Assembly (NCBI GenBank): GCA_046075485.1
Contig: JBJTQF010000035.1
Span: 1 to 33,651 of the forward strand
Source: Myxococcota bacterium
GTDB lineage: Bacteria; Myxococcota_A; UBA796; JAJRTE01; JBJTQF01
Direction of reading: 5' to 3'
DNA length: 33,651 nt
In this document: one piece after another, positions 12,272 through 17,385 of the stretch
How positions within the stretch are numbered: the first letter of the stretch is position 1
Layout of the letters: every line of letters begins with the position of its first letter
Notes under the pieces: model-generated
Told to the model about the DNA's origin: nothing
The model's input: only the letters and a program-made list of their open reading frames with translations
The model's database searches: none
Program-made: the position numbers and the translations under genes

Positions 12272-13366
12272 TCAGGGGAGAAATAGTGCTTCAAGGCTGG
12301 GGGTGGTGGCGGCGGCCACCAAGAGGGCGGAGAGCTGGTCGGGCTCGGTGAGTGCTTCAAGCTGGGTGCGTAGCGGCGGTGGTACGCTGCCAAACCGTGC
12401 TTCCAAAATCTGGAGGATGCTTTCTCGCTGAGCTGCGAGCCTGCCGACTGCCTGGCCCTGATGAAGACCTTCATGCAGACCCTGTTGCAGACCCTGTTGC
12501 AGACCTTCGAGCCTGCCTTGCTCCAGACCGCTCTTCGTGTAGTGCCGTGCCCAAGCGTTCTGGTAGCTGATGGCGTCCATGCGCTCCTTCATCTCAAAGA
12601 CCGAGGCAAACCGCAAGTCTGGGCTTCGGCTGACTTTTCTGAGCTTGTCATCCACTTCATTGAGAAGTTTTAATCCCATCTTCGTAACCTCCTCGTGTGA
12701 GAGCCGTTCGGCGTGCTTTAGATAGTATAGCCATTTCTCCTGGTCTGTCCGCAGCTCTTTCGGGGGGATCTTAAACTTGCGCAGCTCCGCAAAGACCAGG
12801 GTGAGCTGATCAGACAGTTCCTTCCCAGAGCTCGTATCACATAGCCGGCCCTGGGTCACCGGATGAGGCCAGTCTGAGACCGGCGTGAGCAGGTTCCAGC
12901 TCAAGATATGAATGCTGATCGAACGTCCGAGCTCGGCATAGTCCTGGCCCGCATCGAGCTGCTGTGAATGAATCCGGGTGAGATAGAAGACGGCCCGGGC
13001 CATATAGTCCGGCTGGCCGACGAGCTGAAGCTCAATGTGCAGCAGACGCCCCTCATCATCCCGCACGAGCAGATCCAGAACGGGGGTTTTATCACCCGCG
13101 TGAGGGCTGAGCTGACGGGTCTCGAGCCGCTCGACCTTGCGGATCTGATCGCGCTGCTCGAGCTGGAGCAGCGCATTGAGGAGCCCGATGAGCAGGCGAT
13201 GATCGTTTTCGCCGTCAAAGACGCGGAGAAAAACGACCTCCAGGATGAGCTTGAGCTTGCCATTGAAGTCATGACGAAGGATGTGCTCGGAATAGGCTCT
13301 GAGGAGCGTATCGAGCTGTTCGGAGTTCTCAGGGATGTCAAAGATGTCAAAAGTATCGATTGGCAT
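12272..13366 (-). CDS. Rpn-family recombination-promoting nuclease / putative transposase (PD-(D/E)XK, YhgA-like) with DUF4351-like C-terminus
   Basis: A PD-(D/E)XK core is present (…DLLVRDDEGRLLHIELQ…). The C-terminal module is typical of Rpn proteins (GRLEGLQQGLQQGLHEGLHQG…ILEARFG.VP…LEAL.). The gene and its flanks are visibly lower in GC than their neighbours. I chose the ATG at 13366 (MPIDTFD…) because a GAGGG RBS precedes it. The track start at 13435 is a GTG. Confidence 0.65.
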   Translation of the reverse strand: MPIDTFDIFDIPENSEQLDTLLRAYSEHILRHDFNGKLKLILEVVFLRVFDGENDHRLLIGLLNALLQLEQRDQIRKVERLETRQLSPHAGDKTPVLDLLVRDDEGRLLHIELQLVGQPDYMARAVFYLTRIHSQQLDAGQDYAELGRSISIHILSWNLLTPVSDWPHPVTQGRLCDTSSGKELSDQLTLVFAELRKFKIPPKELRTDQEKWLYYLKHAERLSHEEVTKMGLKLLNEVDDKLRKVSRSPDLRFASVFEMKERMDAISYQNAWARHYTKSGLEQGRLEGLQQGLQQGLHEGLHQGQAVGRLAAQRESILQILEARFGSVPPPLRTQLEALTEPDQLSALLVAAATTPSLEALFLP

Positions 13367-13706
13367 GTGGAAACCCTCATAAAACTGAAGAGCTAAGTCT
13401 CCTAAGCAGTTTACCACACATTTGGGACGATGCACCGCATCCAGTGATGCCGTGAGCCTGAGCCAGCCGTGGTCGCGCCCCCTCTGCCTCGAGGCTCTCT
13501 TGGGGCTCGCGCGTTTTCCCCACCTGGACCCACCTCCACTGCTTCCCTCGTGCAGCCGTCTTGCTTACGCAGGCGCGATGCCAAAATAGCCGTTGCTTCT
13601 GCGTTTTTTTGATCCAGTCTCACACATTTCAATCAAGACAATCCAAGCTCGTTCCGATAAACCAGCGGTGAGAACCCCTTAATTCCCGCTTTGGATGGAC
13701 TGAGCC

Positions 13707-16145
13707 ATGATCACCATACCCCGATCTCCACGTCTACCGTCGCTCGTTGGGTGCTCCTTTGTATCGCGCATGAGGCGCACGCCCTCGCTGCTGCTGCTGG
13801 CCTGTGTGTCGTCACTGCTGACCGCTTGTGATGACGGACATTATGCCATCGATATCGGCATCTATCCCACGGTGACGCCGATGGTGGAGACTCCGACCGC
13901 CACTCCCGCTGAGCATCCCAGCCCGACCCCCACGCCCGAGCAGACCCCTCCGATGGATCAAGATGGTGATGGCTACAACGTGCAGACCGACTGCGACGAC
14001 TTGGATCCCAACCTCTACCCCGGAGCCCCTGAGCGCCCCTACGATGGCATCGATCAAGACTGCTCCGGCACCGACCTCATCGATGTGGATGGAGACGGAT
14101 TTTCCTCCGTCGTGGTGGGGGGAGACGACTGCAACGACTACAACGCCAGCATCTTTCCCACTCAATCCGAGACCGCCGATGGGCTCGACAACAACTGCTC
14201 GGGAGCTGCCGACGAAAACACCGAGGTCATCGACGATGACGGAGATGGCTTTAACGAGCTCGCCGGAGACTGCGACGATGCCAATCCCTCCCGCTTTCCT
14301 GGCGCGGCGGAAGTCCCCTACGATCAGGTCGATCAAGACTGTGATGGTGCCGATCTCGCCGATGTGGATCGGGATGGTGTGCCCGGTGGAGCAGAGGGCG
14401 CCGATTGTGACGATTATAATGCGGCCATCTCTCCCCGCATGCCCGAGCAGTGCAACGGCAGCGACGACAACTGTGATGGACAGGTGGATGAGGCGCTCGA
14501 AGTGCTCTCGTATGAAGATCGGGATCAAGACGGTTTTGGCAACAGCAACCGCCCCGTCAAAACCTGTGACAGTGGCTTTCAGACTTCCACCCAGGGAGGA
14601 GACTGCAACGACAGCAGCAGCAGTATCCATCCAGGTGCTTCGGAGAGCTGCGATGGTCAGGACAATGACTGTAACGGCACAGTGGATGATAACGCCGGCA
14701 ACCTCTTCTACCAAGATCGAGATGGTGATCTCCAGGGCAATTTGGCTGTCACCTCGAGAGGATGCACCCTCCCGAGTGGTTTTGTGGCCAACAGCCGCGA
14801 CTGTAATGATCAGGATCCCGCCATCTATTCCGGTGCCCCCGAGCGATGTAATGGCATCGATGACGACTGTGATCAGCTCGCCGATGAAGACATCCGCCGC
14901 ACCGTCTATCCCGACCAAGACGGGGATGGTTATGGCCTGAGCACCCAACCTTCTCAAGATTGTATGCTCCGCCCTGGTTTTGTAGACAATGGCGCAGACT
15001 GCGATGACACCTCCAGCGCCATCCGTCCCGGAGCCCTCGAGCTGTGCAATGGCATCGACGACGACTGTGATGGTGCCTTCGACGATGGATATGCTCAGCG
15101 CACCTACTTCCGTGACATGGATGAGGATGGTTATGGCAACCACTCATTGCCGCTCAGTGCTTGTGCGCCTCCAGATGGATATGTCGAGCGTGGGGACGAC
15201 TGCAATGACGCCGATGCAAAGATTTATCCCGACGCCGATGAGCAATGTGACGCCCTCGACAACGACTGTGATGGCAAATACGATGAAGAGGTAACGACCC
15301 TTTATTACCTGGATACCGATGGAGATGGTTTTGGGGTGAATGATGTCACCTTCGTCGGCTGCGCTGCTCCTGCCGGATTCTCCGCCAGCAGTGGAGACTG
15401 CAACGATGGCGAAGCTCAGGTCAATCCCGGTGTGGCCGAAGACGCGAACCTCGAGGACGACAACTGCAACGGCCAAGTCGATGAAGGGGTCTATTTCAAG
15501 AGCTGCGCGGAGCTCCACTCAGCGGATCCCAGCGCGCCTTCCGGTGCCTACGTGCTGGATGTGGATGGTGTTGAAGGGGCCATGCCTCCCCGCAGTATTT
15601 GGTGTGAGATGTCCCGCGACGGTGGAGGCTGGACCCTGTGTGCTTCTTTTGGCCATCAGCGCGCTCACGACGGCCTGGGGTTCACCACGGAGACCTGGTC
15701 TACCGGCTCTTTTGCCTTCCTCTCGGGGGGATCGGTCACGAGCTGGGGCAACTTCTGTCCAGAACTCTCAGTAAATGAGCTGTATGTGGAGATGCGCAGC
15801 AATCCCAAGACCACGCTCTTTACCACCGGCCTCTTCCGCACCCTGGGAGAAAATCCTTTCACACTGGAGGGTTTTAGCTCGTATGGCAACGGTGAGAAAG
15901 ATGTCGTGGCTTTTTATAACCGCTCCTCGGCTCAACCTCGGGGTCAGTTCTTCAGTGGCATCGGCTGTGGTACGCAGAGCTCACTCGCCAGTCAGGGCTC
16001 GGCGCTCTGTGTGAGTGATGGCACGGCCTATCAGACGATGGTGGGTGATAAAGACGGCAACGACGCCGCCGATGATTGGATGAACACCCTCTCAAGCATC
16101 GGTGGCATGGACGAGGACAATGCCCTGCTCTACTTCGTGCGCTGA
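13707..16145 (+). CDS. secreted lipoprotein with ~9 tandem MopE-type 'putative metal-binding motif' repeats and a C-terminal fibrinogen-like (FReD) domain
   Basis: There are repeated ~45-55-aa units of the form D-x-D-[GQ]-D-G-[YF]…DC[ND]D…I.PGA.E.CNG.DDDC[DN]G, the Cu-binding_MopE / putative metal-binding motif common in Myxococcales. The C-terminal ~250 aa contains GAYVLDVDG…PPRSIWCEMSRDGGGWTLC, matching the fibrinogen C-terminal core (VYCDM.TDGGGWTV). A lipobox signal MRRTPSLLLLACVSSLLTAC is present. The true start may be the ATG at 13770 rather than 13707. Confidence 0.8.
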   Translation: MITIPRSPRLPSLVGCSFVSRMRRTPSLLLLACVSSLLTACDDGHYAIDIGIYPTVTPMVETPTATPAEHPSPTPTPEQTPPMDQDGDGYNVQTDCDDLDPNLYPGAPERPYDGIDQDCSGTDLIDVDGDGFSSVVVGGDDCNDYNASIFPTQSETADGLDNNCSGAADENTEVIDDDGDGFNELAGDCDDANPSRFPGAAEVPYDQVDQDCDGADLADVDRDGVPGGAEGADCDDYNAAISPRMPEQCNGSDDNCDGQVDEALEVLSYEDRDQDGFGNSNRPVKTCDSGFQTSTQGGDCNDSSSSIHPGASESCDGQDNDCNGTVDDNAGNLFYQDRDGDLQGNLAVTSRGCTLPSGFVANSRDCNDQDPAIYSGAPERCNGIDDDCDQLADEDIRRTVYPDQDGDGYGLSTQPSQDCMLRPGFVDNGADCDDTSSAIRPGALELCNGIDDDCDGAFDDGYAQRTYFRDMDEDGYGNHSLPLSACAPPDGYVERGDDCNDADAKIYPDADEQCDALDNDCDGKYDEEVTTLYYLDTDGDGFGVNDVTFVGCAAPAGFSASSGDCNDGEAQVNPGVAEDANLEDDNCNGQVDEGVYFKSCAELHSADPSAPSGAYVLDVDGVEGAMPPRSIWCEMSRDGGGWTLCASFGHQRAHDGLGFTTETWSTGSFAFLSGGSVTSWGNFCPELSVNELYVEMRSNPKTTLFTTGLFRTLGENPFTLEGFSSYGNGEKDVVAFYNRSSAQPRGQFFSGIGCGTQSSLASQGSALCVSDGTAYQTMVGDKDGNDAADDWMNTLSSIGGMDEDNALLYFVR

Positions 16146-16146
16146 G

Positions 16147-17385
16147 TTAAAAATGCGGAGCCGGTACTCCGTCCGTCGGACTCGGTACAGCAGGATTCGA
16201 CACGGCAGGATTCAAGACCTCGGGGCTCGGCACTGCCTCGAGGCCCATTTCAAACGGGAGCTGAAAGGTCTGCTGGAGCGGCTGTCCCTGTGCATCGAAG
16301 ATCCAGGGGCCTCTCACCACCAGCCGATAGGATCCCGCAGCCAACGGACGCAGCGGATGCACCACCGCTGTCTGCCGATCTTCCATATACACACCGCAGG
16401 CCAGCACCTTCTCCGCTGCATCCACCAACACCAGGGTGCTGGGGGAGAGGCTGGCTCCATTCATCTCCCGATCAAAATACAGTCGAAGCTGAGGATCCGG
16501 CTCCATCCTGCCCGGTGGGGTAAAGGACTCCAGCCGAGGTGCTGCTGGAGCGTGCGCCGCGTAGCCTGGGCTCCAAGTGTCGAAGGCATAGGCGGAGTCC
16601 ACCACCACATCGGTGACATCCCACCAGAGCTGTCCGGCCAAATGCAACCGGGGAGGGACAAACACCATCGTGCTTCCCGCACCCCCCCCACGCGGCGCAG
16701 GCGCTCGCGGAGGCGGCGGCAGGTTATAATCCGACCGACTCCCGGAAAAGACCCGCTCGGGCCTGCCTTTGATCTCCGGGAGATTGTCCCGCAGCAACAC
16801 CAGGGTCAGCACCAAGCCGATCACGATCACCACACTGAAGGCCACAATCGCCACTCGGCCCCAGGGCACCTTCTTAACCACCAGCCTCACCACCGCCGAC
16901 TCTTGAGGCTTCACTTCAAAGGTGATCACCTTGTCTTCGTTGGGCTGAGAGGGACGATCATGCTGGCGGATCTCCACCACCTCGAGCAGATACTTACCCG
17001 GCACGAGGTCACTTCGGTTCCACTGAGGGCTCTGCTCTCGATGGACCAGCTCCCAGCGACCATTCCGCTCCAGCCAGAGCTGAGTCAGCACGTTCCCTTG
17101 AAAGAGACGCTGGCTCTGCGCATCCGTGGCGTATCGAAAGGCTTGAAACTGGATCCCAGCCACATTCTGCTGCTCCGACATCCCCAACGAAGAGGAGGTC
17201 TCCACGCTGCTGAGCTCGGCCAGCGGCGGCTCGGCCCGTGGCGAGTCGGCAGGAGGTTGGGAGGGCAGGGCAGTGGTCACCCGGAGCTGAGTGCAGGCAA
17301 GCTGCGCCATCAAGACCGCTCCACTTAAGGCCAGGCAGCCCCAACGGGATAGCCTTCCTGTCATGCGCGAGAGAGGCTTGCTCAT
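16147..17385 (-). CDS. hypothetical bitopic membrane protein (lipobox-like N-terminus, single TM, Pro-rich segment, Ig-like C-terminal domain)
   Basis: The ORF has the N-terminus MSKPLSRMTGRLSRWGCLALSGAVLMAQLAC and a TM helix VAIVAFSVVIVIGLVLTLVLL. A PPPPRAPAPRGGG stretch and a C-terminal beta-rich domain follow. An AAAGGAAG RBS lies 7 nt before the ATG at 17385. The track start at 17403 is a TTG. The stop is 1 bp from the convergent MopE gene stop. Confidence 0.5.
   Translation of the reverse strand: MSKPLSRMTGRLSRWGCLALSGAVLMAQLACTQLRVTTALPSQPPADSPRAEPPLAELSSVETSSSLGMSEQQNVAGIQFQAFRYATDAQSQRLFQGNVLTQLWLERNGRWELVHREQSPQWNRSDLVPGKYLLEVVEIRQHDRPSQPNEDKVITFEVKPQESAVVRLVVKKVPWGRVAIVAFSVVIVIGLVLTLVLLRDNLPEIKGRPERVFSGSRSDYNLPPPPRAPAPRGGGAGSTMVFVPPRLHLAGQLWWDVTDVVVDSAYAFDTWSPGYAAHAPAAPRLESFTPPGRMEPDPQLRLYFDREMNGASLSPSTLVLVDAAEKVLACGVYMEDRQTAVVHPLRPLAAGSYRLVVRGPWIFDAQGQPLQQTFQLPFEMGLEAVPSPEVLNPAVSNPAVPSPTDGVPAPHF

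Follow-up and report, generated by a model that had tools for sequence, protein, structure and literature searches.

The intelectin (X-type lectin) fold is regarded as chordate-specific. Intelectins carry a structural Ca2+ motif, HENxxxGxCTxGD, and their origin is unsettled, with bacterial or phage precursors speculated upon in one paper (PMC9682848); E274, W288 and Y297 are among the Ca2+ ligands and aromatic-box residues of their ligand site (PMC12800186). Two bacterial systems also bear on the protein described here. In MopE* of Methylococcus capsulatus, the high-affinity Cu(I) site consists of Kyn130, His132 and His203, and residues 1-46 are invisible in the crystal; binding of Cu(II) is weak and requires the first 24 residues, and Ca2+ stabilises the protein (PMC3423442). 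TraA of Myxococcus xanthus is composed of a PA14 head, TIGR04201 Cys-rich repeats and a MYXO-CTERM, and has been proposed to be a cell-surface receptor or adhesin (PMC3325183). Our literature searches on bacterial FReDs, intelectins and MopE-repeat proteins in myxobacteria returned nothing specific.

We analysed a window of 33,651 nt (the whole stretch of DNA under study) from an uncultured Myxococcota bacterium and found a gene for a lipoprotein in which nine MopE-type repeats precede a C-terminal head of the fibrinogen-like superfamily (Table 1). The reading we lean towards is that of a stalk-and-head protein displayed at the surface or within the matrix, with the repeats as a spacer and the head as a lectin-type binder, probably making the protein a lectin-type adhesin. 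The gene itself is already deposited, the N-terminal module of its head has an NCBIfam model and its architecture is common in Myxococcota metagenomes; the function given here is predicted.

Table 1. Features of the gene and its product (nt positions in the window; residues in ORF numbering)
Feature	Position	Strand	Basis
Whole ORF, 812 aa + stop	13707..16145	+	ORF list; P0001 100% identical
Probable start M22, signal peptide MRRTPSLLLLACVSSLLTA and lipobox Cys (LTAC, Cys41)	13770..13829	+	Sequence, lipobox regex, deposited 791-aa product
Pro/Thr-rich tether, mature N-terminus (CDDGHYAIDIGIYPTVTPMVETPTATPAEHPSPTPTPEQTPPM)	13830..13955	+	Composition; orthologues with similar P/T linkers
Four short MopE-type repeats, aa 84-270, 42-52 aa each, 2-3 Cys	13956..14516	+	PF11617, motif scan; type = MopE* residues 5-45
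Five long MopE-type repeats, aa 271-596, 61-67 aa, 4 Cys (last: 3)	14517..15494	+	PF11617, motif scan, alignment A2
C-terminal globular head, aa 597-812, fibrinogen-like superfamily, intelectin-like predicted fold	15495..16142	+	Profile searches and fold prediction
Head N-terminal module, aa 599-644, SC..(x)..G.Y.(x)..WCEM..GGGWTL	15501..15638	+	NF040941, PF00147, A1 vs PDB, hhalign

The deposited product (P0001, 'MAG: MopE-related protein [Myxococcota bacterium]') begins at M22, which is probably the true start rather than the listed ORF start, and initiation there yields a canonical signal peptide, MRRTPSLLLLACVSSLLTA followed by C. The N-terminus, MRRTPS-LLLLACVSSLLTA-C, has the positively charged n-region, hydrophobic h-region and lipobox (LTAC, aa 38-41) of an SPII substrate, and the lipobox is retained in orthologues (LAGC in P0025, LTAC in P0028), bearing out an earlier note on this DNA that had called the protein a lipoprotein. 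The secreted precursor would be cleaved between LTA and C, leaving an acylated Cys to anchor the N-terminus, and a flexible Pro/Thr tether of ~40 aa would follow; Pro and Thr account for 17% and 13% of the N-terminal 82 aa. The genes flanking this one are divergent or convergent and offer no functional clue, the neighbours of unassigned function have no family matches, and a promoter and terminator scan of positions 13300-16400 gave counts near shuffle expectation, the sites being uninformative.

The residues after the lipid Cys bear on where the protein resides. Position +2 is Asp, as it also is in P0028, and position +7 is Ala, which is not conserved among orthologues. In E. coli, Asp at +2 retains lipoproteins in the inner membrane and is the classical signal for Lol avoidance (as cited in PMC3222651), and a dedicated surface-export signal is not recognisable in the studied protein; both observations would suit a strut kept to the periplasmic face of either membrane that spans the envelope or binds peptidoglycan or periplasmic glycans. 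We consider this placement unlikely, since lipoprotein sorting differs in myxobacteria, where in M. xanthus +2 Lys directs proteins to the inner membrane and +7 Ala to the matrix (PMC3222651), since an extended stalk of ~770 aa would be longer than the periplasm, and since relatives with the same repeats have T9SS or other extracellular tags (PF18962). The reading set out below assumes display at the surface or within the matrix.

The earlier note had counted about nine MopE-type repeats, and the number is exactly nine: PF11617 (Cu-binding_MopE, 'putative metal-binding motif') matched nine stretches with 295.6 bits and E = 5.5e-90 (gathering cut-off 27 bits), and a direct motif scan placed the nine DC[DN]D cores at aa 95, 141, 188, 233, 299, 365, 431, 498 and 564. 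The repeats fall into two classes, four short units being followed by five long ones with the pattern D.DGDG[YF]G...C..P.G[YF]....DC[DN]D....I.PGA.E.C[ND]G.D[DN][DN]C[DN]G..DE. In alignment A2, built from 60 homologous repeat pairs, 22 columns are invariant and each of them is D, C, G, P or E. The AF2 model of aa 403-535 reached a pLDDT of 94.9 with hardly any regular secondary structure, and a PDB fold search with this model gave no significant neighbour. AOAH was considered as a relative of known structure for the MopE motif and rejected: the phmmer (E = 0.3), profile (E = 0.26) and Foldseek (E >= 1.9) searches were concordant, but none was significant. Long antisense or off-frame ORFs within the repeats had no family matches and were treated as composition artefacts.

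The family name invites a role in metal handling, with the acidic Cys/Asp repeats sequestering or shuttling metals such as copper while the head plays an accessory part, and the nine PF11617 motifs and the extreme acidity of the protein are in keeping with it, as are the weak Cu(II) binding of MopE* through its first 24 residues and its stabilisation by Ca2+ (PMC3423442). However, the repeat unit is homologous to residues 5-45 of MopE* (PDB 2VOV; E = 1.6e-6, profile E = 2.7e-3) and to these residues only, and no homology to the copper site was found: MopE* has one copy of the motif, at its disordered or cleaved N-terminus, with the Cu(I) site outside it (PMC3423442), whereas the studied protein has nine tandem copies and no MopE core domain. 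Moreover, the repeats are nearly free of His, and their Cys form conserved sets of even number, as is typical where a secreted protein is disulfide-bonded. A TonB-dependent receptor gene does lie upstream, both in the window and at the orthologous locus, but on the opposite strand and at least two genes away. Finally, the same repeats bear many unrelated heads, as would be expected of a scaffold. A dedicated metal-handling function therefore seems very improbable to us, and of the 'metal-binding motif' named in the earlier note the PF11617 membership holds while the metal role is only nominal.

As a spacer, the repeats would form a strongly acidic array of ~510 aa, made of nine disulfide-bonded modules, probably stiffened by Ca2+ at their D-x-D-x-D-G and D-[DN]-[DN]-C-[DN]-G motifs, that keeps the head off the membrane. 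Annotators would do better to treat 'Cu-binding_MopE' repeats as a generic display stalk, acidic and rich in disulfides, whose binding heads are interchangeable (fibrinogen-like, C-type lectin, PPC, Fz, Kelch and RCC1).

The head, at about 215-224 aa (aa ~597-812), is smaller than the ~250 aa first ascribed to it, and terminates with the strand NALLYFVR at the extreme C-terminus. The fibrinogen signature WCEMSRDGGGWTLC is present as claimed, at aa 632-645 (nt 15600-15641). It belongs to the N-terminal module, the sole part of the head that resembles FReDs, intelectins and collagen C-propeptides in sequence. The bacterial NCBIfam model NF040941, 'fibrinogen-like YCDxxxxGGGW', matched this module over profile positions 1-45 of 46 (54.3 bits against a cut-off of 30, E = 9.8e-15), whereas PF00147 Fibrinogen_C remained below its gathering cut-off of 22 with the whole protein (13.2 bits) and with the domain alone (13.9 bits), its match being limited to profile positions 13-46 of 221. 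The assignment to a fibrinogen-related domain thus holds at the level of the NCBIfam model and fails at that of Pfam. Among the 18 family members aligned, C600 and C633, the Cys of the predicted A-subdomain disulfide, are conserved in 17-18, the strand motif [YWFH]C[DE]M occurs in all 18 and GGG[WF]T in 15.

The hallmarks of the FReD B/P-subdomain are a D.D.D Ca2+ site and NCA...GGWW...C..NLNG. By regex, D.D.D, GGWW and NLNG each occur in 0 of the 18 family members and NCA in one, and all four are missing from the studied protein. Membership of the fibrillar collagen C-propeptides (Pfam PF01410 COLFI), for which we required a Pfam match above cut-off and a trimerising fold, was not found either. 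The C-terminal half of the head family is hypervariable. The studied head has in addition lost four residues that are near-invariant in the family (N759S, N783D, C793N and C799G), and because of these losses it may bind differently or more weakly. A polar cluster conserved in the family comprises N759 (Ser here), Q763, G772, Q776, N783 (Asp here) and a D-W-M stretch immediately ahead of the Cys column occupied here by N793; the heads of P0025 and P0028 retain N759 and C793.

By fold prediction from the 18-sequence alignment, the head is closest to the animal intelectins, markedly nearer than to any classical FReD, a class that includes ficolins, FGL1, fibrinogen beta/gamma, angiopoietins and tenascins, and the predicted fold contains both the fibrinogen-like lobe and the intelectin-specific region. 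Similarity in sequence is confined to the N-terminal part: profile A1 matched PDB chains over positions ~4-77 only, and when the family profile was compared with ITLN1 by hhalign, 54 N-terminal columns only could be aligned, with a probability of 97%. No solved chain resembles the C-terminal half of the head in sequence: its sub-profile gave only chance antibody matches in the PDB, and against the C-terminal half of ITLN1 hhalign returned a probability of 0.6%. Because the hhalign and sub-profile searches fail past these 54 columns, we rejected any residue-level mapping of intelectin ligand and Ca2+ sites, including N243, N260, E262 and H263, further residues of the ligand site. At the level of motifs, the stretch aligned with the intelectin structural-Ca2+ motif reads HQRAHDGLGFTTE, and neither HEN nor G.C..GD.W occurs in any of the 18 family members (0/18 each); the ligand motif N.EH is likewise absent from all 18 by regex, which leans against conservation of the ligand site.

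The intelectins compared were human ITLN1 (4WMQ/4WMY), Xenopus XEEL (4WMO) and the lamprey serum lectin (7E1E); for ITLN1 and XEEL, 4WMY and 4WN0 are the ligand-bound structures. Intelectins form disulfide-linked trimers and bind glycans with exocyclic 1,2-diols in a Ca2+-dependent manner. With ~215 aa against ~280 aa in intelectins, the bacterial head is missing much of the intelectin 'decoration', and unlike its animal counterparts it sits on a lipoprotein stalk. We put forward only tentatively, and with considerable doubt, that it is truly homologous to the intelectin domain and represents a prokaryotic, minimal ancestral or sister form of it, carried on the Ca2+-stiffened stalk of a predatory or social myxobacterium and recognising glycans of prey, of competitors or of its own matrix through a site unlike those of animal intelectins and ficolins. 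What is defined is a compact bacterial domain family with a predicted fold near intelectin and without any known Ca2+ or ligand motif, and the ~215-aa head is an expressible object for asking whether intelectin-type elaboration predates animals and what such heads bind in bacteria.

The single head at the distal end represents a bacterial line within the fibrinogen-like superfamily. In the lectin-type reading it would be the ligand-binding module, and its ligand most likely a polysaccharide or glycoconjugate of the cell's own matrix or of the surface of other microbes. Counting against this reading, no ligand site can be pinpointed: none of the 18 family members has the Ca2+/acetyl-site hallmarks of FReDs or the structural-Ca2+ and ligand motifs of intelectins. 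Related folds also serve other ends: fibrinogen takes up peptide 'knobs' in its gamma and beta holes, angiopoietin engages Tie2, and fibrillar collagens are trimerised by their C-propeptides. The head might by the same token be a protein-binding or oligomerisation module that bundles three stalks or docks on a protein partner, a reading that we regard as rather unlikely.

Comparison with TraA raises one further reading. The two proteins, from the same phylum, share a lectin-like head, a Cys-rich repeat stalk and a lipid-type anchor (PMC3325183), by analogy only, since the head fold and the repeat family are unrelated to those of TraA. The topology is mirrored, the studied protein being anchored at its N-terminus with the head at its C-terminus. 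By this analogy, the head could recognise itself or a strain-specific ligand on siblings instead of a generic glycan, and a homotypic or kin-recognition receptor would share with TraA the logic of a variable lectin-like head on a Cys-rich, lipid-anchored stalk (PMC3325183). The syntenic orthologues reach only 48-53% identity, which, like the hypervariability noted above, would accord with such a role. Yet no TraB-like partner gene is adjacent and the protein has neither a MYXO-CTERM nor TIGR04201 repeats, while the three orthologues are too few for a test of diversifying selection. We judge kin recognition improbable and retain the lectin-type adhesin.

The combination of repeats and head had been called unusual, a view that the wider search reversed. 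A word-indexed search with the head alone gave 0 matches, and an exhaustive HMMER search was used in its place. A tblastn search (E <= 1e-3) found no phage relatives of the head, and the literature searched contained no characterised member of its family. Among the best 120 MopE-rich homologues, 27 carry one such head at the C-terminus, and matches to the head at E <= 0.001 were obtained from 1,396 cluster representatives; the stalk-and-head layout is a common one in metagenomes of Myxococcota and no rarity. Whole-domain relatives of the head numbered 23 among the 269 retrieved proteins (alignment A1), and the searches recovered many bacterial proteins named 'fibrinogen-like YCDxxxxGGGW domain-containing protein'. 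NF040941 spans only the 46-residue N-terminal module, whereas the full ~215-aa head forms a sub-family that is narrower and has a conserved C-terminal half of its own.

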